Origin: Methanothermobacter marburgensis str. Marburg
GTDB taxonomy: Archaea; Methanobacteriota; Methanobacteria; Methanobacteriales; Methanothermobacteraceae
DNA: 32,000 nt
Assembly: GCF_000145295.1 (NCBI RefSeq)
Contig: NC_014408.1
Coordinates: forward strand, 1,290,001 to 1,322,000
Direction: 5' to 3'
Notes under the pieces: model-generated
Told to the model about the DNA's origin: nothing
Database searches by the model: none
The model's input: the letters and a program-made list of their open reading frames with translations, nothing else
Program-made: the position numbers and the translations under genes
In this document: in pieces, positions 4,330 through 27,808 of the stretch
How the letters are laid out: every line of letters begins with the position of its first letter
Numbering within the stretch: the stretch's first letter is position 1

Positions 4330-4725
4330 TTATGATGGTGTTTTAACCGCCTTATCGACCGGAAGGTCTGGGGGTGCCGTTATGATTATTGCCCCCTCCC
4401 TGGGCCTTATTATTATTTCACCCTCATCTATGACCCTGGTGTGGACTGCCACCGCACTGTTCTTTATGTGGCTGGACATGTCAATGCCATTAACCGTTAC
4501 CCGCCTCAGGCCTGCGACAGGTATGAGGTAGTACTCTGATGGCCCGGTGTTTTCACTTATCTGGGGCTTTCCTGATGCCTCACCTGCCCCCCCTGAAAAG
4601 GTGGTTGTCACCACAAGGAAAATCAGTATTGTGAAGAGTATATCGATGAAGGGAACCATGTTGAACCTTGGCCTTCCATGGACCTTGTTCCTGTACCTCT
4701 CTGTATCCAGGACCATTTTTATCAC
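4330..4725 (-). CDS. ExbD/TolR-family biopolymer transport protein
   Basis: 131 aa. Single N-terminal TM with the ExbD-like core [19 protein letters not shown]. Its start overlaps the stop of the upstream ExbB-like gene by 4 nt (ATGA). Confidence 0.75.
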
Positions 4726-5561
4726 TGCCGCAGCTTACTCTCAATGATCTCGGCGCTCTTACCGCACCTTTCGAGTATTATATTGTTTATGCTCTTCTCA
4801 AGCATGCTGGGCTTGAATGCCACCACAAGGTTTGCCTCAGGGTCATCAACCGTCCTCACGCTGACAACACCATCCGATTCCATGAGGGCCTCGACCACAT
4901 CATCAACGTCTCCATCAACCCTTATCCTCATGATGGCGTACCCCCAGTTTGTCATCTTCTTTATGAGTTCAATCTTGTCTATCTCATCGTCTATCCTGCC
5001 TGTTATGTAGGAGTAGAGGGGCATGAGGATTATGGCAACTGCCAGTCCAAGTATTGTGGTTATCAGTGCAACATAGATCCCCTCAGCCATTGCAGCGGGG
5101 TCAGCGTTAACACCTAGGGCCCTGAATGTGTACCATATCCCTATGACGGTCCCTATAAGACCCAGCATTGGGGCGACCTCTATTATTGTCCTCAGCGTCC
5201 CAAGACCCTTTGTCATGTTGCTCATCTCAACAATGAAAACACGCTCCATCGCATCCTCAACCTCTGAACGGTTCCTGTAGCCTATCTTGAGGGCCTCTGA
5301 TATTATCTTTGATACTGGATTCTGGTACTGCCCTATCTCCCTGAGTGCCTCAAGTGCTCCGCCCTTCTCCATGGATTCATTGACCTTACCTATTATCTGG
5401 GGTGTGCTAACACGTGAAATCTTTCTTAGGTAGTGTATCTTCTCAATGGACGTGATAAAACCATAGACACCTGTGATTGCTATTATGTATGTTATTACAC
5501 CGCCGCTGCGGAACATTTCAAGTACTGTGCCAAAGAAGTTGAAAACTGGTTCGAGAAACAT
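4722..5561 (-). CDS. MotA/TolQ/ExbB-family proton channel protein with an extra C-terminal soluble domain
   Basis: 279 aa with three TM segments in ExbB-like spacing (APMLGLIGTVIGI..., EGIYVALITTILGLAVAI). About 85 residues follow the last TM, which canonical ExbB lacks. AGGTGAGG Shine-Dalgarno upstream. Confidence 0.78.
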   Translation of the reverse strand: MFLEPVFNFFGTVLEMFRSGGVITYIIAITGVYGFITSIEKIHYLRKISRVSTPQIIGKVNESMEKGGALEALREIGQYQNPVSKIISEALKIGYRNRSEVEDAMERVFIVEMSNMTKGLGTLRTIIEVAPMLGLIGTVIGIWYTFRALGVNADPAAMAEGIYVALITTILGLAVAIILMPLYSYITGRIDDEIDKIELIKKMTNWGYAIMRIRVDGDVDDVVEALMESDGVVSVRTVDDPEANLVVAFKPSMLEKSINNIILERCGKSAEIIESKLRQ

Positions 5562-6281: not shown

Positions 6282-7355
6282 TTATTTCATTGCCTTGAGC
6301 CTTACCTCAGGTTCAAGTGCCCTTGGTTCTGCAGCAACTATTGCGGCTCCCTTGGCAACCACTGTCATGGGGTCATCTGATATCTCGGCAGGAATGCCAA
6401 CCTCATCCAGTATCCTCTCCCTGAGGCCCCTGAGCTGTGAGGTTCCACCCACAACAACAGTCTTGTTGTAGACCCCTGAGATGAGTTCAGGTGAGAGCCT
6501 TTCAAGTACCGCTGCTATGGAATCCACTATACCCTTTACAACGGGCTCAGCAGCCTCTGCAACCATTTCAGAGTCAATTTCAACCTTTTTAGGTTTGTTT
6601 GTCTCCATGCATTTACCTATAACCACTGTTTTGAGGTTTTCAAGATCCTCCTTACACTTGACCATCCCAACCTCTATCTTTGCCTTCTCTGCCTCATGGA
6701 TGCCTATCTCAACATTGTACTTCTCCTTCACCAGTTCAACAAGGTTGGTGTCAATATCATCCCCGCCGACCCGGATTGTCTCAATGTCGGTTATGCCTCC
6801 AAGGGATATCACGACAATGTCACTGGAACCGGCCCCTATGTCAACAACCATGGTCCCTGACGCCTCTGCTATGGGCAGCCCGGCCCCTATGGCAGCTGCA
6901 AGGCCCTCACTTATAACCAGGACATAATTTGCCCCGGCCTTCCTTCCTATCTCCTCAACGGCATTTCTTTCAACCTCTGAGGCATCCCCTGGTATACCTA
7001 TAACTATCCTGTCAATGGACTCAGAATCTCCTGCCCCCATCTCCATTGCATATACAAGGAGGGCCTCTGCCTGTGCAACGCTCTCAATAACACCCTTCCT
7101 CAGTGGTCTCACAGCGATTATGTCCTCAGGGGTTCTTCCGAGCATCATCTTTGCCTCTTCACCCACTGCAAGGACATATGATGGGTCCTCCTTCTTGACG
7201 GCCACCACAGAGGGAATCTTGTAGATATCAAATTTATCCCCTGCTGGTTTGGCAACCACGGTGTTGAGGGTACCCAGGTCTATTCCGAGTGTATTGGTGA
7301 TTGCACTCTTCCTTTCCGGTTTCTCTTCAGATTTTTTCTTTCCAAATGAAAACAT
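6282..7355 (-). CDS. mreB: MreB-like actin-family cell-shape protein
   Basis: Motifs LGIDLGTLNTVVA, AVGEEAKMMLGRTPEDIIAVRPLRKGVI and VVDIGAGSSD. The ORF track extends it to 7394. The ATG at 7355 (MFSFGKKK) has a GGAGGAG Shine-Dalgarno 4-5 nt upstream and avoids overlapping the upstream gene, so I prefer it. Confidence 0.85.
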   Translation of the reverse strand: MFSFGKKKSEEKPERKSAITNTLGIDLGTLNTVVAKPAGDKFDIYKIPSVVAVKKEDPSYVLAVGEEAKMMLGRTPEDIIAVRPLRKGVIESVAQAEALLVYAMEMGAGDSESIDRIVIGIPGDASEVERNAVEEIGRKAGANYVLVISEGLAAAIGAGLPIAEASGTMVVDIGAGSSDIVVISLGGITDIETIRVGGDDIDTNLVELVKEKYNVEIGIHEAEKAKIEVGMVKCKEDLENLKTVVIGKCMETNKPKKVEIDSEMVAEAAEPVVKGIVDSIAAVLERLSPELISGVYNKTVVVGGTSQLRGLRERILDEVGIPAEISDDPMTVVAKGAAIVAAEPRALEPEVRLKAMK

Positions 7356-7356
7356 G

Positions 7357-7998
7357 CTACTCCTCCTCAAATATGTCTCTAAAGTCAACTGCAAATATGT
7401 TGTTGCGGGATGCTATCTCATTTATCCTCTCAACATCACCTGATTCATGAACAGATATCAGCAGTGTTACCAGGACAACGTCTGTAACCTTGAAGAGGGG
7501 GTCGATTATATTTCTTATAAATCCCGGAAGCCTCTCTGTAAGGTAGACGTCTGTCTCTATAAACCCGCTCGTTCTGTCCTCAAGGATGAAGGAAAAACCT
7601 ATTTTATTCTTTTCAGCCTCCCCTGCAAACCTTTTCATATAGTTCTCAGGGGCGACAAGAAGCACAAGGTTGGGTTCGTTCTCAACGTAATATGGGGCTA
7701 TCTTTATATAGGCCCCTCCCTTTTCCTTGCAGATAAGTGAAAGATCTCTTATTTTGTTGCTTTCGCCATAAAGCATTATTAAATCAAAGCGTTTTCTTAA
7801 AAAGGAATCCTTGATGGTAACGTGTTCCCTGAAGAGTATCTTTACAAGATCCCTTGAGGTGATTGCCTCGTAGGCCACAGAGTTGACCATTTCCTCATTA
7901 CCCGCAATCACACACCACAGCCTGTCTGAACTCTGGGCTGTTGAAACCTGTGCTGCCTTTCTGAGAACCTTTATCTTACTCTCTATCATCACCATCAC
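7357..7998 (-). CDS. Hypothetical cytoplasmic protein, translationally coupled to mreB
   Basis: 213-aa ORF with no TM segment and no family motif I recognise. Its stop (7357-7359) is 1 nt from the mreB ATG. Start uncertain (a GTG/ATG cluster at 7987-7998). Confidence 0.6.
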   Translation of the reverse strand: MMVMIESKIKVLRKAAQVSTAQSSDRLWCVIAGNEEMVNSVAYEAITSRDLVKILFREHVTIKDSFLRKRFDLIMLYGESNKIRDLSLICKEKGGAYIKIAPYYVENEPNLVLLVAPENYMKRFAGEAEKNKIGFSFILEDRTSGFIETDVYLTERLPGFIRNIIDPLFKVTDVVLVTLLISVHESGDVERINEIASRNNIFAVDFRDIFEEE

Positions 7999-8094
7999 AT
8001 CTACTCTAAAAGGAACTTAAAAGAAAGTTCCTCTGCTCCAGAGGAAAACACATGCATATCAATCACAGATTACATTTAATCTTCAGCACATGAC

Positions 8095-8103
8095 TATATA
8101 TAT
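8095..8103. promoter_or_regulatory. Palindromic TATATATAT element in a divergent intergenic region; candidate bidirectional TATA box
   Basis: An AT-rich 253-bp gap lies between the divergent hyp-mreB and psd operons. The element is about 30 nt upstream of the first psd-leader repeat and about 100 nt upstream of the minus-strand start. Confidence 0.4.
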
Positions 8104-8132
8104 GTTTCACTAATATTATTCAACATCCAGTG

Positions 8133-8193
8133 AGGTGCTGATGAGTGAAAGACTGCATCCCTAGGTTAATATACAGGTGCTGATGAGTGAAAG
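8133..8193 (+). repeat. Perfect 19-bp direct repeat AGGTGCTGATGAGTGAAAG x2 (8133-8151 and 8175-8193) in the psd leader
   Basis: Read directly from the sequence. Each copy carries an SD-like AGGTG plus an ATG, opening a mini-ORF. Confidence 0.9.
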
Positions 8194-8251
8194 CCAGGTG
8201 TTACTCTTCAAGAGGGTCTTCATGTGCCTCTACCTTACAATATTAGAATAG

Positions 8252-8941
8252 GTGAATTGTGTGTTTGTTAAGGGCGTTGCAAAAAGAGCCAGTTTTCTCA
8301 TAAGTGTGGCCACCATCCCATTTCTCCTAGGCTACCACGCGGTCAGTATACTCATGTTCAGCCTCATAGCATTCATGATGCAGTTCTTCAGGGACCCTGA
8401 AAGAAATATTCCCTCTGAAGATAATATCATCGTTGCCCCCGCAGATGGTAGGCGTTTATCCGGCAAGATAGACCGTATAAAAAGGGTAGGGTCCGATTAT
8501 CCCCTCATTGACAGGATATTTCCCAATGGTGGTGAGGCTATTCTCATAAGCACCTTCATGTCACCATTTGATGTCCACGTAAACCGGGCCCCTGTTTCGG
8601 GAAGGGTGATATACACAGAGCATACTGACGGTAAATTCAGGGTTGCACGTTCACGTGTCCTCACCGAAAATGAAAGGAACCTGATCGTGATAGAAACAGA
8701 GCATGGCAATGTTGGTGTGGTGCAGATAGCAGGGTTCATTGCACGGAGGATCGTTCAGTACGTCAATGAGGGAGACTATGTTGAGCGGGGGAGCCGTATA
8801 GGTATGATAAGGTTCGGCTCAAGGGTCGACCTCATACTGCCAGAAAACTGTGAGGTGCTTGTGAAGACCGGTTCAAGGTCTGTTGCCGGGGAGACTGTTG
8901 TAGCAAGGTTCGTAAAGCCTAAATCAGACCGCAAAAATTAA
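8252..8941 (+). CDS. psd: Archaetidylserine (phosphatidylserine) decarboxylase proenzyme
   Basis: 229 aa. Motifs FFRDPERN, APADGR, FMSPFDVHVNRAP and the self-cleavage-type FGSRVD. GTG start immediately after an in-frame TAG. Confidence 0.85.
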   Translation: MNCVFVKGVAKRASFLISVATIPFLLGYHAVSILMFSLIAFMMQFFRDPERNIPSEDNIIVAPADGRRLSGKIDRIKRVGSDYPLIDRIFPNGGEAILISTFMSPFDVHVNRAPVSGRVIYTEHTDGKFRVARSRVLTENERNLIVIETEHGNVGVVQIAGFIARRIVQYVNEGDYVERGSRIGMIRFGSRVDLILPENCEVLVKTGSRSVAGETVVARFVKPKSDRKN

Positions 8942-8982
8942 TTAGTCAGACACAACCATATACAACTCTGCAGGTGGCGCTG

Positions 8983-9666
8983 ATGAATGACAAAAAAATA
9001 ACATCCTTCATATCATTACCTGATGTTTTATCGATTTTAAATGCTTCTTCAGGCTATTTTTCCATTTTAATGTCCATTCAAGGGTATTTTAGTGCTGCAT
9101 CTATTCTGATGCTTCTGGCTGTCGTTTTCGATTCACTTGATGGGTGGGTTGCACGCCGAACTGGTAGAGTTGATATTCATGGATTTGGCAAAAACATGGA
9201 CTCCCTTTCAGATGTAATCTCATTTGGTGTTGCTCCAGCCATTTTTATCTACCTAACAAGTGCCCATTTTCGATATATTAATATATTAGTAGGTCTCTTA
9301 ATAGTAATATGTGGCATACTGAGACTCTCAAGGTTCAATGTTCTCACAGGGGGTGGGAAGAACTTCACGGGACTTCCAATACCCGTGGTGGCGGTTGTTG
9401 TATCATCATTTTATCTCACAGGATTCTACAGTGAGAAGGTTGTGGGGGCAATGCTGCTCGCTGTCGGTATCCTCATGGTCAGTAGCATTGAATACCCTCG
9501 TGTGGGGGGTAAAATGGCATCTATTGCTTTCATACTCATAACAGCAGCAATTGTAACAGGCATAACTGGAATTCTCACTGTTCCCACAGCAATCATACTT
9601 TTTATGGCCACTGTGGCATACATTGCAGTGCCTATAACACCAATGAGACGTGATCTGAATGCTTGA
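8983..9666 (+). CDS. pssA: CDP-alcohol phosphatidyltransferase; archaetidylserine synthase
   Basis: Motif DSLDGWVAR-x10-GKNMDSLSD matches D-x2-DG-x2-AR...G-x3-D-x3-D. Multi-TM protein. The ORF track starts at GTG 8974. The ATG at 8983 is preceded by AGGTGG with 5-nt spacing. Confidence 0.88.
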   Translation: MNDKKITSFISLPDVLSILNASSGYFSILMSIQGYFSAASILMLLAVVFDSLDGWVARRTGRVDIHGFGKNMDSLSDVISFGVAPAIFIYLTSAHFRYINILVGLLIVICGILRLSRFNVLTGGGKNFTGLPIPVVAVVVSSFYLTGFYSEKVVGAMLLAVGILMVSSIEYPRVGGKMASIAFILITAAIVTGITGILTVPTAIILFMATVAYIAVPITPMRRDLNA

Positions 9667-10969
9667 TAAGATTAAAGGTAATGAAAAGGGGAATAAGAAT
9701 AATCCTCCTGATCTCCGGAAAAACAACAGAAAAGGTGACTCGAAAATTGGAGACAAACTCAAGGGACTTGTGGGTAAATTCGGTGGCGGTGAGGGCTCGG
9801 ATAAGAAAAAACCCAGGCCCATGCCAAAACCCCGGCCCCGGCTGAAAACCCCTGAAGAGCCAAAGGCCAGAAAAGCCCCTGAAAAACCTCTCAGGGGTGG
9901 TGAACAGCCTAAGCCCAGACTTACACCACCACCCAAACGACCTGGAGGCCCATCAGGAGGTATAGGTCGGAAAATTCCAGATGAGGACCAGAAAACCCTC
10001 GTTGGTGCCCTTGTCTTTGGTGTTATTCTAATGGTCCTTGCTGGTGCAGGCTACTACTTCTTAGTCTACCAGCCATACCAGGAGGTGCTGCAGAACGCCA
10101 AGGCCACAAAGATCGCTGAGGTGGACGCACTCTTCAAGGGCCCCCTTGCAACCGACCCCCAGAAGCAGGCCATACTTGCACAGATAGATGCCGCTGTTAC
10201 ACCCGAGGAGGCCCTGGCGGTTGATGTTGTGGGTCCCGCAACACAGTCATGGCGTACCTATCAGAACCAGCAAATAAATATAAAAAAGGACCGTGTTGGC
10301 AGGGTCATGGTTAATTACACAGATAACGACCAGCAGAAGCGTGTGATAATGAAGGTTGCTGATGCAAAGAAATTTGTGAGCCAGGCCGATGCAACCGTGC
10401 TTGCAAATACACAGATCCAGACCCCTGATACCGTTGCTGTGCCAATAATGATCACGAGACTGCAGGCGGCAGGCGGCCTTATAAGTGTGGGTAACATGGT
10501 CGACGTCTACCTCAACCAGAACGCCACCGAGAACAATACATCAGCTGCAGCATCAACACCAAGAATAAGCGGGGCTACTGTACTTGCAATTCTTAGATCC
10601 AAGGACAGCGGTACAGTGGACGCGCGCATACTAAACACTCAGCGGTTAACACTAAACACAATAACCTCACAGAGCGAAAATGAAAGAACATCATCAACAG
10701 ATGTGGAGCAGCTCCTGCGGGCGGCTGCCTCAGGTGGTCTGAATGAAGCCGAGATCAATGCTATACTCCAGAACTACGGTATAAGGCTGTCCAACTATGA
10801 GAGGTCATCAAATCTGGGAGAGCTTGATGCCAACTACCTCATAATACTCGAGGTCCCAAGGGAGGATGTCCTCTTCCTGATACAGAACATGAACAGCATC
10901 GTTCTGACTGTGCCAACACAGAACGCCCCTGACTGGATGATCAGGGAGCTTCAGAGCATATACGGCTGA
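9659..10969 (+). CDS. Bitopic membrane protein: K/P/R/G-rich disordered N-terminus, one TM, large external domain with weak CpaB/RcpC-like features
   Basis: 436 aa. Residues 1-110 are low complexity (KKPRPMPKPRPRLKTPEEPKARKAPEKP). TM at about residues 113-137. The start overlaps the pssA stop by 8 nt. Confidence 0.7.
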   Translation: MLDKIKGNEKGNKNNPPDLRKNNRKGDSKIGDKLKGLVGKFGGGEGSDKKKPRPMPKPRPRLKTPEEPKARKAPEKPLRGGEQPKPRLTPPPKRPGGPSGGIGRKIPDEDQKTLVGALVFGVILMVLAGAGYYFLVYQPYQEVLQNAKATKIAEVDALFKGPLATDPQKQAILAQIDAAVTPEEALAVDVVGPATQSWRTYQNQQINIKKDRVGRVMVNYTDNDQQKRVIMKVADAKKFVSQADATVLANTQIQTPDTVAVPIMITRLQAAGGLISVGNMVDVYLNQNATENNTSAAASTPRISGATVLAILRSKDSGTVDARILNTQRLTLNTITSQSENERTSSTDVEQLLRAAASGGLNEAEINAILQNYGIRLSNYERSSNLGELDANYLIILEVPREDVLFLIQNMNSIVLTVPTQNAPDWMIRELQSIYG

Positions 10970-11022
10970 CTAAGCCAAAAAATTTATTAAATTTTTATTT
11001 AATATTCTAGGTGGGGATGTTT

Positions 11023-11949
11023 ATGAAAAAATGGGTGTATGTTGTTATAGCTGCTGTGTTCATGCTTTCCATTCTGGGAGTCTCTGATACAGGGTCAGCT
11101 GCCAAGGAGACATGGGTTTCTGAAAAACCATCTGCAACCAGTTTCAGGTTGAAGGACCTGACCGCTGTTATAACCGTAAAGATAAAGAACAATGACAACA
11201 ACGTCCAGTACTTCAAGATAGGGCAGGTATACCAGGGAAGCCTTTCAGAGAACAGTACAATTAAATGGCTCATCCAGTGGACGAATCCAGCGGCGGTTAA
11301 AATGGTCAAGTCAAGGACGCCTGAACTGGGGGGTGACTACGGCTGGAAGGTGAAACCTGGGGAGACAAAAACAGTGTCATTTGGCCTCAGGGCCACGGGG
11401 GATATGGGTGAGATACCCAGTTACATCGTTAATGTTGAGTCAGATAACAGCAATTACTGGCCACTTATAAATGAGCCTGGCCTCATGTCCTCATGGTTCA
11501 TGCCCAATGAGATAGAGGTCCTAAACCCATCACTGGATCTCAGATACTGGAAGGGGACCTTTGGGTTCACTCTGATCAACATCGATGAAGAGAAGGTTTC
11601 AGGTATCGTGAGGGCCCCCATTGCCCCTGCAAACTCAAAACTAGTGTACAGTTCACCCAAGGCATTTGTGGATGATGACCTCTTTGTGAGCACACAGGTT
11701 GCTGCATGGGATGTCACAATGGACCCGGAGACCTCACAGAGGTTCGTATACACCTACGAATGGCCCGCTAAGGTAAGCGGAGGTAACGGTTCAACCAGTG
11801 GTGGAGGCTATTACCCGCCAGGCACTCTTCAGGGGACAACCGGTTCATCATCTGTTCCAGGTGCTAAGACAGGTGCCCCCTACGGTCCACTGGTGATAGG
11901 TGTGCTTGTGACTGCAGCCGCAGTTGCCTACACAAAGATCATACGTTAA
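11023..11949 (+). CDS. Secreted surface protein with a C-terminal sortase-type sorting signal
   Basis: Signal peptide MKKWVYVVIAAVFMLSILGVSDTGSAA. G/S/T-rich linker. C-terminus SSVPGAKTG-APYGPLVIGVLVTAAAVAY-TKIIR. The ORF track starts at GTG 11011. The ATG at 11023 has better spacing to AGGTGGGG. Confidence 0.75.
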   Translation: MKKWVYVVIAAVFMLSILGVSDTGSAAKETWVSEKPSATSFRLKDLTAVITVKIKNNDNNVQYFKIGQVYQGSLSENSTIKWLIQWTNPAAVKMVKSRTPELGGDYGWKVKPGETKTVSFGLRATGDMGEIPSYIVNVESDNSNYWPLINEPGLMSSWFMPNEIEVLNPSLDLRYWKGTFGFTLINIDEEKVSGIVRAPIAPANSKLVYSSPKAFVDDDLFVSTQVAAWDVTMDPETSQRFVYTYEWPAKVSGGNGSTSGGGYYPPGTLQGTTGSSSVPGAKTGAPYGPLVIGVLVTAAAVAYTKIIR

Positions 11950-11970
11950 TCATCCCACCTTAACTTTTTT

Positions 11971-12705
11971 ATGGGGACATTCATGAGGCTGGCAACTTTT
12001 CTGATAATTGCAGGCATGTTCATAGTGTCGCTCTACGCCCTTCTTGAGGTGAGTTTCTATTCCTCACAGGTAATTGTTCAGAACCCTGACATCAGGGCTC
12101 CGGTCATTGAGATACCATCCATTAACCTTGAGGAGACCATCAACAACCGATCCGTTTTCTATGGAGTCTACCATGAACCCATGTCCTACCTCCCTGGTAA
12201 CAGAACCGTCATACTCTTCGGACACAGGACACTCTACGGCTCACCCTTCCTGAACCTTGATAAGTTGAAGCCGGGGGATGAGGTCAACCTTAACTGGCCA
12301 GGGGTTGGCCTTGCGACTTACAGGGTTAATCGATCATTCATCGTGCCAGCATCCTACCAGATATCCGTGAATCAGGGGGCGAGGCTATTTCTCATCACAT
12401 GCCACCCCCTTGGATCAACAAGGGAGAGACTGATAGTTGAGTGTAAACTTGAAGGCATAAAGCCCTACCAGAGAAACCTCAAGGTTGAGAACCCCAAGAG
12501 GTACTATGCGCTACTCATAATACTCGGATTCCTTGGGGCTGGTCTTCTGATCACCAGACTCTATCCTGTTTATGAAGATAGGAGACTTCTCCTTGCAGCG
12601 GTAATCAGCCTCACACTCTTCCTGCTGCTGGGTTACATCTTCCCGATCCCCCCAGAGTTCATATCAGAGAAACTCATTGAATTCAACAGCATATTTGGAC
12701 TTTAG
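11971..12705 (+). CDS. Sortase-family cysteine transpeptidase
   Basis: 244 aa with an N-terminal TM anchor. Sortase core: IEIPSINLEE..., PGNRTVILFGHR (His85), LFLITCHP (Cys144, codon 12400-12402) and STRERLIV (Arg151/153). Two further TM segments at the C-terminus. Confidence 0.82.
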   Translation: MGTFMRLATFLIIAGMFIVSLYALLEVSFYSSQVIVQNPDIRAPVIEIPSINLEETINNRSVFYGVYHEPMSYLPGNRTVILFGHRTLYGSPFLNLDKLKPGDEVNLNWPGVGLATYRVNRSFIVPASYQISVNQGARLFLITCHPLGSTRERLIVECKLEGIKPYQRNLKVENPKRYYALLIILGFLGAGLLITRLYPVYEDRRLLLAAVISLTLFLLLGYIFPIPPEFISEKLIEFNSIFGL

Positions 12706-12725
12706 TGAAGCTTAAGGTGTTTAAA

Positions 12726-13091
12726 ATGAGAGAACCTGGAGAAGAGTACTTTTCAAATCTGTCAGACAGGGAAAGGGCCATATTTGAGGGCGGCATAAGT
12801 ATGGGTGCCCTCTTCCACCAGTTCGTTGGAACCCCTGTTAACCTTGAAACCGTTGAAGTCCTTGAGGGTGCAATTGCCGAATCAATAAAGCTCCAGCCGG
12901 CAATCAGGGATGCAGAGGTCCATATAGACAGAGGCATGGTAAGGGAGGCTGCTGGAGAATTTGGTTATGTCTCCCTCACCGGTGAGATGCTAAGGGTGAG
13001 GTTAGACGTTGAATATGGTTCATCAAGGATAACGATCTGCCTCGAGTACCTCGATGAACTGAGGTATCCCCTCATGTATGTGAAGGATTGA
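12726..13091 (+). CDS. mptD: Archaeal dihydroneopterin aldolase-like protein (MptD family)
   Basis: About 121 aa. The ERAIFEGGISMGALFHQFVGTPV pattern is as I remember it for the archaeal DHNA/MJ0408 family. The ORF track starts at GTG 12705. The ATG at 12726 follows AAGGTG with 6-nt spacing. Confidence 0.55.
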   Translation: MREPGEEYFSNLSDRERAIFEGGISMGALFHQFVGTPVNLETVEVLEGAIAESIKLQPAIRDAEVHIDRGMVREAAGEFGYVSLTGEMLRVRLDVEYGSSRITICLEYLDELRYPLMYVKD

Positions 13092-17805: not shown

Positions 17806-20180
17806 TTGATGGCATATGGTGACAGCATGCCCAGAGCATCAAAGGATATAATAAATGTTAAGGGATTTCACCTTGAATTCGGTGAAATTGACGAATACCT
17901 CAAAAGAAAATCATGTGAGAGTAAGAGGGTATCTGTGGATTACGATGAGCTTAGAAAATGGGACCTTAATCTCCTATCCTATTTCAAGCCATTCTATGCA
18001 CCCCTCTGTGACCTATGCTGCATGTGCACCTACGGCAAATGCGACCTTCTAGGTAAGAAGGGTGCCTGCGGTATAAACCTCGAGAAACAGCAGGCAAGGG
18101 AGGCCCTATCAACTGCAGTTATAGGTGCATCGGCCCATGCAGCCCATGCAAGGCACCTCGTTGACACCCTTATCGAGAAAAAGCCCACATCAGAACTCCA
18201 TTATGATAGTTCAATAGACATAAAGACACCAATATCCACCACAGTAACCGGTATAGAGCCTGAAACACCAGAGGACCTCGACAGGATAATGACATACATA
18301 GAACGGGAGCTCACAAATCTCATTGCCTCAGTTCATACCGGCCAGGAGGCTGAAGTAACCGATTTCGAGTCAAAGGCCCTCCATGCTGGTATGTTAGATA
18401 CCATGGCGCTTGAACTGGCCGATATAGCACAGATAAACCAGTATGGACTCCCCACAGGTAAAGCAGATACACACATGCTGGAAATTGGAATGGACGTTAT
18501 AGACAGCACAAAACCTGTCATACTCTGCATAGGACACAACATAGCGCCCTCAGCTGAGATAATAGACTACGCAGAGGATATCGGTGCTGAGGAGGAAATA
18601 GAGATCTGTGGCCTCTGCTGCACAGCCATGGAGATGGGAAGGTACTCAAAATCATCGAAAATAGTTGGGCCCATATCAAGGCAGCTCACCTTCCTCAGAT
18701 CAGGCATTCCAGATGTGGTTGTACTGGATGAACAGTGCATACGCTCAGATGTATATGAGGTGTGCGGTGAAATGGGGATGGTTGTGATCGCAACAGGTGA
18801 CAAGTGCAGTATGGGCCTTGAGGATATGAGTGAAGAGAACCCCTACAGGATAATAAACCGGATACTGCAGGAAAAAATACCAGGGGTTCTTATAAAGGAT
18901 GGAAAAAAAGGTTGCCATGGTCGCTGTGAACCTTGCACTTCAGCTTACCCGTGGCAGGGACCCCGAAACATCAGGCCGTTTCAGGGTGAACTGTGTGAGG
19001 TGCTCGCCCTGTGATTCAAACTGCACGCCATCCAGGAAACCCGAAAAACAGAAAGATATTGACCTGAATTCAGTGCTGGGATACTGTGAACTCTGTGGGG
19101 AATGCAACCGTGTCTGTCCGGCAATGCTGCCCATCATGGAGGCAATAGATGATGCAAAGAATGGTGGCCTCCGCGCCATAGGGACCCTCTATGAAAGCTG
19201 CAGTGGCTGCGGCCGGTGCATGGAGGTATGCCCTGTGGGAGTGCCAATCCTGGATATCATAAGAGAATCACGTGGAGAAACCCCTGAAAGATTCCTCATA
19301 AGGGCCGGCAGGGGGCCGGTACAAGATATAGAAATAAGGAGGGTTGGTGCCCCTATAGTTTTCGGTGATATACCCGGCGTCATATCACTTGCAGGATGCT
19401 CCAACTACCCCTCAGGTGAAAGGGATGTGCAGATAATCGCTGAGGAGTTTCTTAAGAGGGGCTATATAGTACTTGCAGCAGGATGTGCGGCCATGGATAT
19501 AGCCCTCACACATGATGATGAGGGCAGGACACTCTATGAAAAATACCCTGGAGACTTCGACAGGGGAGGGCTCCTCAACCTCGGCCCATGTGTCGGGAAC
19601 TCCCATGCCATTGGAAGCGCCATAAAGATAGCCAATATATTTGCAAGGGTGCCCATGAAGGGGAACGCCGTTGAAATAGCAGATTACATACTAAACCGGA
19701 TAGGTGTCTGTGTGATAGGATGGGGTGCCATGTCACAGAAGGCATTTGCAATAGTCACAGGTGCAAACAGGTGGGGGTATACCTGCAGTTCTTGGGCCCC
19801 ACGCATCAAAGTATCGCAGGCTTTACCTGGGTGAATCCAGCCCAAGGGTGATAAGGGACAGGGCTGATGACAGCATTGTCCCCTCTGAACCGGCGCCACC
19901 CCACCTAACCTACGCGGCTGAGAGTATCAATGAATGCCTTGTAATGGCTTCAAAGATGTGCATAAGACCCAACGACACACCCCGAGGGCGAATGGTGAAG
20001 CTCAGCAACTACGTTGACCTGCACCTGAAATATTACGGCGATCTACCTGCGGATATTGACCTCTTCGTAAGGAATGAGAAGGAGATCCCCTACAAGCATA
20101 AAGATGATATAATGGAGATACTGAGGGAAAAGAACTGGAAGCCACGTGACCCGGTAAAGGAGCCCACGATCATCAGGTGA
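17806..20180 (+). pseudogene. cdhA: CO dehydrogenase alpha subunit (CdhA) interrupted by two +1 frame changes, at an A7 run (18903-18909) and a G5 run (19773-19777)
   Basis: Three consecutive ORFs in frames 1, 2 and 3 (17806-19014, 18899-19834, 19761-20180) together encode about 790 aa. Features: the N-terminal Cys cluster PLCDLCCMCTYGKCDLLGKKGACGI, an internal 2x[4Fe-4S] insert ([24 protein letters not shown]) and a C-terminal CODH domain. Removing one A and one G restores [12 protein letters not shown] and [13 protein letters not shown]. The exact start is unclear (TTG 17806, ATG 17809 or ATG 17827). Confidence 0.75.
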
Positions 20181-24309: not shown

Positions 24310-25020
24310 ATTAAGAGACACTCGCGTTATCTCGCTCTACTTGCACTTGCAGTAGCAGTGAGTACCATACCATTTGGACAGATGGAATTTCTGGAATCCG
24401 GTGGCGAAAAGATAAAGACAAAGTCAGCATCCACCCCAAAGGTTGATGCGGCCTCAAAGTACAGGAAATACAGTAAGGTCTACGCCAAATCAAAGAAAAA
24501 GATAAAGAAGAAGTACAGGACAAAGGCAACCTACACCACAACAACAAGGAAAAAGTACAGGACAAGGGCAACCTATAAAACCACAAGTCACAAGAGGTAT
24601 CGTACAAAGGCAACCTACACCACAACAACAAAGAGGGCATACACAAGGGCGGCGAGTTCCGAAGATCTGGATGATCTGCAGGGCGATGAGGGACTTGAAA
24701 AACTTGCATCATACATCAACAGAAACTTCAACCATCGATCTGGAGGTCCTCACACCGCTGAGGGTGTTGAAAGGACAGGATACGGAGACTGCTGGGGACT
24801 ATCTGACTGGTCAGCAAAGAAACTTGCTGCAAACGGCTACAAGGTGAAGGTAGTCCAGGGAGCCACATCTGCATCATCAAGACACAGATGGTTGCACGTA
24901 TACTCTGAGGGAAGGTGGACAAGCTTTGAACCGTCACTGGTAACCAAACGTTATGGAAGTAAACATTATACTGCAACCTGTGGGCGCGCAACGACTGTTG
25001 TGAAAACCTACAACATGTAG
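24310..25020 (+). CDS. Secreted transglutaminase-fold (cysteine-protease-like) protein with basic K/R/T/Y tandem repeats; start codon uncertain
   Basis: The C-terminal domain GYGDCWGLSDWSAKKLAANGYKVKVVQG...HRWLHVYSEGRWTSFEPS fits the transglutaminase-core pattern (Cys145 codon at 24790-24792, then His). The only canonical start is GTG 24358. The in-frame upstream codons encode IKRHSRYLALLALAVAV, a signal-peptide-like segment, after GGAGG plus a 7-nt spacer plus ATT at 24310. Confidence 0.65.
   Translation: MKRHSRYLALLALAVAVSTIPFGQMEFLESGGEKIKTKSASTPKVDAASKYRKYSKVYAKSKKKIKKKYRTKATYTTTTRKKYRTRATYKTTSHKRYRTKATYTTTTKRAYTRAASSEDLDDLQGDEGLEKLASYINRNFNHRSGGPHTAEGVERTGYGDCWGLSDWSAKKLAANGYKVKVVQGATSASSRHRWLHVYSEGRWTSFEPSLVTKRYGSKHYTATCGRATTVVKTYNM
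24511..24636 (+). repeat. 3 x 42-bp tandem repeat encoding K-(K/R)-Y-R-T-(K/R)-A-T-Y-(T/K)-T-T-(T/S)-x
   Basis: Units at 24511-24552, 24553-24594 and 24595-24636, read directly. A partial fourth unit (RAYTRAA) follows. Confidence 0.85.
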
Positions 25021-27249: not shown

Positions 27250-27327
<78 letters not shown>

Positions 27328-27334
27328 TCCTAAG

Positions 27335-27409
<75 letters not shown>

Positions 27410-27419
27410 TCCAAAAAGC

Positions 27420-27428
27420 TTAAATATA
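27420..27428 (+). promoter_or_regulatory. TATA box (AAAAAGC-TTAAATATA) for tRNA-Tyr
   Basis: Ends 25 nt upstream of tRNA-Tyr position 1 (27454). Preceded by an A-rich BRE-like run. Confidence 0.55.
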
Positions 27429-27453
27429 CATCACCCCCAATGATGTATATCAA

Positions 27454-27529
<76 letters not shown>

Positions 27530-27653
27530 CACCAACAGTGTGAAAGTTTTAAATACTAGAAAAATAGAACTCATAACATGTATGTCATACAGCAATAGTA
27601 AAGTATATAAGCAGGTAACGAGAGAACACAGTAATGCTCTCATTCTGAAGACC

Positions 27654-27729
<76 letters not shown>

Positions 27730-27733
27730 CTTC

Positions 27734-27808
<75 letters not shown>

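Follow-up and report, generated by a model that had tools for sequence, protein, structure and literature searches.

Gene Content of the Locus

The window analyzed here is a 32,000-nucleotide stretch of Methanothermobacter marburgensis str. Marburg (contig NC_014408.1, positions 1,290,001 to 1,322,000), and our subject is a run of five forward-strand genes within it that encode an archaetidylserine decarboxylase (psd), an archaetidylserine synthase (pssA), a membrane protein with DUF515 and RcpC/CpaB regions (the DUF515 protein), a 312-residue candidate sortase substrate (p312), and a sortase (Table 1). The best protein matches are Methanothermobacter sequences, at 96–98% identity. A first-pass annotation, made from the sequence alone, had described five tightly packed, same-strand open reading frames (ORFs) and had named psd, pssA, and the sortase. 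All five ORFs lie on the forward strand at the positions and with the spacing it gave, and the three named proteins each exceed the cutoff of their family. The junctions measure 32–41 nt between psd and pssA, 41 nt between the DUF515 gene and p312, and 21 nt between p312 and the sortase gene, while pssA and the DUF515 gene overlap by 8 nt. Two features were absent from that annotation: a sixth gene, for an mptD-like dihydroneopterin aldolase (DHNA), whose start overlaps the sortase stop at 12705, and a divergent arm (6282–7998) that carries genes for an MreB-type actin homologue and a 213-residue protein (p213). Since the genome is ∼90% coding, tight spacing is by itself uninformative; it is the conservation described below that goes beyond chance.

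Table 1. Features of the sortase locus, in window coordinates
Feature	Position	Strand	Basis
psd, archaetidylserine decarboxylase, general type	8252–8941	+	TIGR00164 AS_decarb
pssA, archaetidylserine synthase, general type	8974 (GTG) or 8983 (ATG) to 9666	+	NF038087 arch_ser_synth
DUF515 + RcpC/CpaB membrane protein	9659–10969	+	PF04415, PF16976
p312, 312-aa candidate sortase substrate	11011–11949	+	no family match
p312 sorting signal	11854–11946	+	family profile
Sortase	11971–12705	+	PF04203
mptD-like dihydroneopterin aldolase (DHNA)	12705–13091	+	PF04038, 141.5 bits
MreB-type actin homologue	6282–7394	-	PF06723, 348 bits
p213, 213-aa cytoplasmic protein, upstream of MreB	7357–7998	-	conserved position
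Divergent intergenic region, AT-rich	7999–8251	.	holds 19-nt direct repeat

A Sortase and Its Adjacent Substrate

The p312 protein matches no Pfam, NCBIfam, or PDB sequence entry; of its 144 homologues, none has a precomputed Pfam domain and all that are named are called "hypothetical protein". An AlphaFold2 (AF2) model built on a 49-sequence alignment (mean predicted local distance difference test score, pLDDT, 82.1) contains a signal-peptide helix, confidently modeled beta-sandwiches at residues ∼45–130 and 160–251, a disordered Ser/Gly/Thr linker (256–290), and a C-terminal sorting signal. A Foldseek comparison of this model with the PDB gave no significant match, and no pilin or Cna-type fold. 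Model and alignment together depict p312 as a Sec-exported protein of two predicted beta-sandwiches, a flexible Ser/Gly/Thr stalk, and a tripartite sorting signal.

The peptide region around the signal reads SSVPGAKTGAPYG. It comprises the motif V282-P-G-A-K-T287-G288-A-P-Y-G, a transmembrane (TM) helix at 292–311 with a hydrophobic length of roughly 17 residues, and a basic K/R tail, K-I-I-R. Across the family the signal follows the pattern [ST][VIL]P[TS]xxTG[VLI]P[YFW][GA]L...G...Y[AS][KR]F[LFM]R and then stops. The Thr and Gly are invariant in all 63 orthologues, exactly 24 residues follow the TG in 58 of them, and a Gly at +17 and a Tyr at +20 are conserved in the helix and tail; the signal as a whole is conserved more strongly than the remainder of the protein. 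When a hidden Markov model (HMM) of the tail was run over six-frame ORFs (87 sequences, 1.45 Mb of loci), each locus yielded a single gene, in every case the immediate upstream neighbor of the sortase gene, and no further substrates were found. The TG is invariant, its distance to the TM helix and basic tail is fixed, and it is encoded next to a sortase with an intact catalytic triad in two archaeal classes, which leads us to regard p312 and the sortase as a cognate pair; judged from these sequences, its signal, VPTxxTG, is a new motif variant unlike LPXTG. The pairing put forward in the first-pass annotation is therefore real, with the tripartite signal conserved in 63 orthologues and the gene adjacent to the sortase gene. 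Upstream of p312, a strong GGGGG-type ribosome-binding site is conserved, and a lenient archaeal TATA-box pattern is matched in only 15 of 61 loci.

The sortase scores 64.3 bits against PF04203 (cutoff 26.6), which places it in the peptidase C60 superfamily. An N-terminal TM helix (residues 7–25) precedes a catalytic beta-barrel (∼40–165) and two C-terminal TM helices (178–195 and 206–224). In an alignment of 13 diverse family members, all three TM helices are conserved and the catalytic residues H85 (codon 12223, FGHRT), C144 (codon 12400, LITCHP), and R153 (codon 12427) are invariant. The enzyme is a genuine sortase and probably an active Cys transpeptidase, held in the membrane by the TM helices that flank its catalytic domain. 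In an exhaustive profile search, 15 representatives fell below 1e-30, after which the scores dropped to bacterial sortases near 80 bits; the window sortase thus belongs to a small, discrete archaeal clade. The best 120 matches listed by a homologue search with the sortase alignment were all from Methanobacteriaceae, and the Methanopyraceae sequences were reached via the representative search.

Class assignment within the superfamily is less clear-cut. The AF2 model (pLDDT 82.3) aligns to T. fusca SrtE, group B Streptococcus SrtA, and SrtC1 with Foldseek E values of ∼2e-10 (TMt 0.55–0.73); classes A, C, E, and F match about equally well, and class E, the name used by NCBI and CDD, is not set apart. 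Against the class E model NF033747 the window sortase scores 35.8 bits and its Methanopyraceae orthologue 55.8, where the cutoff is 160, and the VPTxxTG motif of p312 is not the LAXTG type of class E substrates. The class D cutoff is also missed.

The traits that recall class C bear on the idea of a pilus-like fiber, in which a class C-like polymerase would link successive p312 subunits by joining Thr287 carboxylate to lysine and the DUF515 protein would serve as an assembly factor. The best PDB sequence match of the sortase is the class C enzyme 8t28 (E = 5e-7), with whose motifs H85, C144, and R153 align. Class C sortases usually have a C-terminal TM helix, and the TM segments C-terminal to the catalytic domain are the sole class-C-like trait of the window enzyme. 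On the substrate side, p312 has two beta-sandwich domains in which lysines K59, K69, and K120 are invariant or nearly so, the DUF515 protein has an RcpC/CpaB "Flp pilus assembly" domain, and Lupo et al. 2025 (mSystems, PMC11915815) placed the DUF515/sortase pair under pilus or surface proteins. However, the DP[FWY] lid motif is found in none of the 13 aligned sortases, the class C NCBIfam model gives 34.1 bits (cutoff 160), and the structural match favors class C no more than classes A, E, or F. The locus also offers a single substrate gene with no tip or base pilins, and p312 has no pilin or Cna-type match in the PDB. We consider a fiber quite improbable.

Between the lipid genes and p312 lies the gene for the DUF515 protein (PF04415, 86 bits; PF16976, 32.8 bits), a single-pass protein in which a TM helix at residues 113–137 is followed by the DUF515 region and then by an RcpC/CpaB beta-clip domain. 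A Lys/Pro/Arg-rich tail of ∼100 residues (window 9659–9960), probably disordered, precedes the helix. This tail is kept in Methanobacteriaceae and missing from the Methanopyraceae orthologue, whose alignment begins at window residue 102 and is 38% identical across the TM and juxtamembrane region. A DUF515 profile search of PDB sequences returned no match.

Short sortases of 135–160 residues, comprising only an N-terminal TM helix and the catalytic domain, were also found to match the archaeal family profile (L087:985–1392, L088, and L089). One of them lies on an 11-kb contig with many tiny ORFs, where it is accompanied by a PF27228 "MTBMA_p00010" protein and by a pseudomurein endoisopeptidase-like protein of the Peptidase_C71 type, which has a faint PMBR match; the contig resembles a Methanobacteriales virus or plasmid that carries its own sortase. 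The short paralogue had no match in phage or IMG/VR collections.

Conservation of the Gene Order

In Methanobacteriaceae the typical order is RNase HII, MreB, and p213 on one side and psd, pssA, DUF515, p312, sortase, DHNA, and kor on the other. All five cassette genes occur in order in 48 of the 60 loci that have enough upstream flank; 45 of the 60 have p213 together with the six genes that follow it, and in a further three p213 alone is absent. Because unrelated flanking genes are conserved too, this synteny proves little when taken alone.

A locus from outside the family is more informative. We assigned L083 to Methanopyraceae, as its proteins cluster at at least 90% identity with proteins labeled "Methanopyrus sp." or "Methanopyraceae archaeon". 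It has the order psd, pssA, DUF515, a 321-residue protein, and sortase, with start/stop overlaps of 17, 16, and 4 nt, of which the 16-nt overlap is that of pssA and DUF515 and the 4-nt overlap that of the 321-residue protein and the sortase. Only 6 of the 34 window genes have a homologue in this 20-kb locus, namely, MreB, p213, psd, pssA, DUF515, and the sortase, and their order and orientation are kept. MreB is 64% identical and occupies the equivalent relative position. The product of p213, for which we found no Pfam or NCBIfam match, is present in all loci with enough flank; it is 23% identical to a 206-residue protein of L083 (E = 4e-9) and corresponds by position to the "coiled coil protein" OG0001176 of Lupo et al. 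The 321-residue protein shares the layout of p312, with an N-terminal hydrophobic segment and a long Gly/Ala stalk followed by ...KYRTGESLFLITAAVIGALVGAYLVYRGLSR; its similarity to the p312 family profile is marginal and confined to the last domain (E = 0.095), and we treat the two as positional analogues, with homology unproven. Four genes, for OapC, OapB, and a small GTPase (-) and a methyltransferase (+), stand between the MreB/206-residue arm and the psd–sortase arm of L083 (4642–5950).

Since Methanopyraceae share the block while the other flanks differ, the linkage can be placed in the ancestry of the pseudomurein archaea; comparison of the two loci indicates that the five-gene block is ancestral to both pseudomurein lineages and was kept as a unit, not as mere local synteny. 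The closeness of the genes is another matter. Across loci, the pssA/DUF515 junction has a median of -11 nt (gap of at most 60 nt in 64 of 67 loci) and the p312–sortase gap a median of 25 nt, but the sortase/DHNA junction, with a median of 10 nt across 80 loci, is equally tight. DHNA is a cytoplasmic cofactor enzyme that has no counterpart in L083, so shared function cannot be read off the packing here, and the earlier argument from minimal spacing to a functional unit is weakened.

Loci in Which the Linkage Is Broken

The first-pass annotation had made its proposal depend on the sortase traveling with psd and pssA in related genomes. That order does hold across Methanobacteriaceae and Methanopyraceae against nonconserved flanks, but the linkage has exceptions. 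The sortase gene of Methanothermus fervidus is flanked by a glycosyltransferase cluster and nrdD and has no cassette partners nearby, and the DUF515 and coiled-coil genes are far apart, as judged by the accession numbers in the supplement of Lupo et al. In Methanobrevibacter-type loci, where the wider synteny is intact, psd, DUF515, and p312 are gone in two cases (L084 and L085) and psd and p312 in a third (L086); where DUF515 and p312 have been deleted, pssA adjoins the sortase gene with gaps of 36–40 nt. Five Methanobacterium loci have lost psd and kept p312 (L049, L070, L071, L074, and L077).

Conversely, the sortase is retained while p312 is missing, fragmented, or undetected in L010, L013, L015, L025, L031, L035, L046, L055, L078, L080, and L084–L086. 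In five of these loci, which come from metagenome-assembled genomes (L010, L025, L035, L055, and L078), the DUF515–sortase interval holds p312 in fragments or with a degenerate tail, reflecting either assembly frameshifts or true pseudogenization, and in L013 and L015 the gene is deleted, leaving about 180–270 nt between DUF515 and the sortase. Such loci lend some support to a reading in which nothing ties these genes together functionally: the cassette would be an operon, kept from an ancestor, of envelope genes unrelated to one another, p312 would remain TM-anchored or be released by hydrolysis, and the sortase would serve substrates encoded elsewhere. Methanobrevibacter is reported to encode LPxTG-like adhesin-like proteins elsewhere in the genome (PMC2812497), and the conserved length and sequence of the p312 helix and tail, including the Gly and Tyr noted above, could mean a permanent anchor. 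This reading must nevertheless explain why an invariant TG is kept at a fixed distance from the TM helix beside an intact-triad sortase in two classes, when the ectodomain of the Methanopyraceae protein has no detectable homology to that of p312, and we regard it as improbable.

The Lipid Genes and the Choice of Acceptor

The first-pass annotation had proposed archaetidylethanolamine or archaetidylserine, the products of Psd and PssA, as the acceptor whose headgroup amine resolves the acyl-enzyme thioester, and had named a pseudomurein peptide amine as the alternative. A lipid acceptor would leave p312 lipid-anchored at its C-terminus and make the cassette a convergent, true-sortase version of the ArtA/PssA/PssD system. 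The DUF515 protein, translationally coupled to pssA, might then present the lipid or organize the complex; it would be the coupling factor, and the divergent MreB module would place the reaction at growth zones. Much in the gene neighborhood agrees with this proposal. Despite unrelated flanks, both Methanobacteriaceae and Methanopyraceae keep the five-gene order and the start/stop overlap of pssA and DUF515, and pssA and the sortase gene remain adjacent after the internal deletions in Methanobrevibacter-type loci. An independent precedent comes from Abdul-Halim et al. 2020 (PMC7157517), who started from the juxtaposition of artA, pssD, and pssA in Methanosarcina, found that ArtA-dependent processing and lipidation in Haloferax volcanii require PssA and PssD, and proposed archaetidylethanolamine as the nucleophile; the annotation had stated this dependence correctly. 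In M. thermautotrophicus proteomics, the sortase and PTDSS (taken as phosphatidylserine synthase) are both reported to become more abundant after cold shock (PMC6528648).

The type of the lipid genes points the other way. Psd reaches 321.6 bits against the general model TIGR00164 (cutoff 230) and PssA 268 bits against NF038087 (cutoff 240), but both fall below the models dedicated to protein sorting systems, with 142 bits for Psd against anchor_synt_D NF038088 (cutoff 240) and 92.9 bits for PssA against anchor_synt_A NF038086 (cutoff 200). The Methanopyraceae enzymes miss NF038086 and NF038088 likewise (74 and 139 bits for PssA and Psd). By these profile scores, the window psd and pssA belong to the general housekeeping clade and are not sorting-system paralogues. 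We take them to be, most likely, the organism's sole source of serine and ethanolamine bulk lipids, so their presence needs no sortase-linked reason. The M. thermautotrophicus orthologue of the window pssA, MTH_1027, is a characterized archaetidylserine synthase (cited in PMC7157517). The phylogenetic distribution also tells against a lipid acceptor, since the sortase, DUF515, and p213 occur only in pseudomurein lineages (Lupo et al., PMC11915815), whereas aminolipids are widespread in archaea. So, too, do the unlinked sortase of M. fervidus, the Methanobrevibacter-type loci that retain pssA and the sortase without psd or a substrate, and the five Methanobacterium loci in which p312 persists without psd; moreover, no cassette gene is coupled to the sortase more tightly than the unrelated DHNA. 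On balance, a lipid acceptor seems to us unlikely, although it is a legitimate, testable, and apparently unpublished hypothesis.

We favor, tentatively, a different reading, in which the locus is an ancestral cell-envelope block of pseudomurein methanogens that combines a housekeeping aminolipid pathway with a dedicated sortase system, and the acceptor is the amine of a pseudomurein precursor. The sortase would cut p312 at T287|G288, within the invariant Thr-Gly pair, and hold the cleaved protein as a thioester on C144, after which the new C-terminus would be handed to a primary amine at the membrane–wall interface. The acceptor would most likely be the peptide of a lipid-linked pseudomurein precursor, through its free amine, which would amount to wall anchoring of the classical kind that uses lipid II in bacteria. 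The CpaB-like DUF515 protein would be a partner on the extracytoplasmic side, and the linkage to pssA/psd and to the divergent MreB would reflect co-expression of envelope-growth functions rather than acceptor supply. We prefer the wall peptide because the sortase is homologous to enzymes that use lipid II and is restricted, with DUF515 and p213, to pseudomurein lineages, and because psd and pssA are housekeeping genes and the sortase survives where the linkage is broken. The lineage specificity of the three proteins fits a wall-linked role at least as well as a lipid role.

Several observations count against a wall acceptor. Wall-synthesis genes (Mur ligase, MraY-like) are absent from the block, while pssA and psd are present. 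The five-gene order has survived across two archaeal classes in which every other flanking gene differs; this conserved order and the near-universal pssA/DUF515 overlap are what a direct functional tie predicts, and the comparable neighborhood in Methanosarcina marked a real dependence of the sorting enzyme on lipid enzymes (PMC7157517). Our literature searches found no biochemical data on any pseudomurein-anchored protein.

A more direct part in the wall can also be imagined, with the sortase as the missing transpeptidase that cross-links pseudomurein and p312 as incidental. It is a Cys transpeptidase specific to the pseudomurein lineage and encoded near MreB, sortase chemistry resembles that of Cys-based L,D-transpeptidases, and we know of no pseudomurein transpeptidase that has been identified. 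Beside the enzyme, however, a dedicated substrate protein that bears a sorting signal is conserved. By the annotation count tabulated in the Methanobrevibacter ruminantium genome paper, most Methanobacteriales have one or two sortases and Methanosphaera none (PMC2812497), and Methanosphaera stadtmanae has pseudomurein. Lupo et al. set their gene cluster C, which includes this sortase, aside as probably unrelated to pseudomurein synthesis (PMC11915815). We hold the cross-linking role to be highly improbable.

The locus thus supplies a defined enzyme–substrate pair, a new motif with a predicted cleavage site, and a sharp choice between wall peptide and aminolipid as the acceptor. As a sortase system it is new in its motif and its partner protein, and it is tied to aminolipid synthesis by a gene linkage that is unusual and conserved. 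The lipid-acceptor hypothesis is not the most probable on present evidence; if it were true, the ArtA model would gain an independent, convergent example, two unrelated sorting enzymes, a sortase and an archaeosortase, would have converged on a shared aminolipid acceptor, and sortase chemistry would extend to membrane lipids in vivo. If the acceptor is pseudomurein, this would be the first covalent protein–pseudomurein linkage and would show that the co-option of a bacterial-type wall had brought the sortase pathway with it. One published proposal is to control gut and rumen methanogens by targeting the sortases of Methanobrevibacter (PMC2812497).

Other Features of the Window

Between the p213/MreB arm and psd lies a perfect 19-nt direct repeat, AGGTGCTGATGAGTGAAAG, at 8133–8151 and 8175–8193 (42 nt spacing), which carries UGAUGA, a box-C-like core. 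A C/D-box or hammerhead element (CUGAUGA) was considered and rejected, as D boxes, stem II, and an Rfam match are all lacking; the repeat may be a regulator binding site. An Rfam scan of the window gave nothing in the cassette and matched only five tRNAs, which are clustered on the forward strand upstream of rpoB (27254–27808).

Next to RNase HII and MreB is an ExbB/MotA-like and ExbD-like pair (4330–5561, -) that occupies the same place in Methanobrevibacter-type loci, and the Lupo et al. supplement has a header row labeled MotA/TolQ/ExbB beside candidate orthologous groups (PMC11915815). A 220-residue protein with a transglutaminase-core domain (PF01841, 29.8 bits; 24358–25020, +) could be relevant to the pseudomurein cross-linking step; the same supplement gives the label "psm-binding repeat / transglutaminase" to one candidate group. 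Two overlapping forward-strand ORFs (17806–19014 and 18899–19834, together 17806–19834) match consecutive parts of a Prismane/CO dehydrogenase profile and may be a frameshifted or split gene.

Comparison with Known Systems

Literature searches (sortase with archaetidylethanolamine, DUF515, and MTH1027–1030) found no work on this cassette and no characterized true archaeal sortase, in agreement with the first-pass annotation, which had known of no experimental description of such a pathway. The nearest description is cluster C of Lupo et al. (PMC11915815), composed of an MreB/DnaK-like protein, a coiled-coil protein, an RcpC/CpaB-DUF515 protein, and a "sortase E". All of these except MreB were recovered as specific to pseudomurein archaea, and MreB was added for its conserved position. 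The same genes make up the window, where MreB, coiled-coil, DUF515/CpaB, and sortase genes are clustered bidirectionally, as they also are in L083 with its four inserted genes; the M. thermautotrophicus Delta H accessions are spaced alike. In contrast, psd, pssA, and the 312-residue substrate are not in the published set though they lie between its genes, which follows from the listing of lineage-specific orthologous groups only, and the cluster C sections cited here define no sorting signal and raise no lipid link.

The class GN "marine" sortase TIGR03784 resembles the window system in that the sortase is encoded beside its one cognate target, whose motif is a variant particular to the family. 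The match of the window sortase to it is weak, however, at 29.7 bits against a cutoff of 158, and both the target domain and the archaeal lineage differ.

With bacterial sortases of classes A and E (LPXTG/LAXTG, lipid II/peptidoglycan) the window enzyme shares the fold, the His-Cys-Arg triad, and the N-terminal membrane anchor, and p312 shares with their substrates a Sec signal peptide, a low-complexity stalk, a tripartite C-terminal signal, and the invariant T-G. The differences are that the p312 motif has no Leu and two extra residues between Pro and Thr, that the Methanobacteriaceae enzyme has two extra C-terminal TM helices and misses the class E, C, and D cutoffs, that the host wall is pseudomurein and not murein, and that the operon includes aminolipid synthesis genes.

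The ArtA-PssA-PssD system differs in its enzyme, a polytopic protease of the exosortase/archaeosortase family in place of a PF04203 sortase, in its signal, PGF-CTERM in place of VPTxxTG, and in its lipid genes, which fall in the NF038086/NF038088 clades, whereas the window pssA and psd lie outside them. What the two have in common is a sorting-enzyme gene juxtaposed with pssA and a decarboxylase gene, in Methanosarcina and here, a substrate that combines a motif with a TM helix and a basic tail, and a link to the growth machinery, seen as midcell localization in Haloferax (PMC7157517) and as the divergent MreB in the window.

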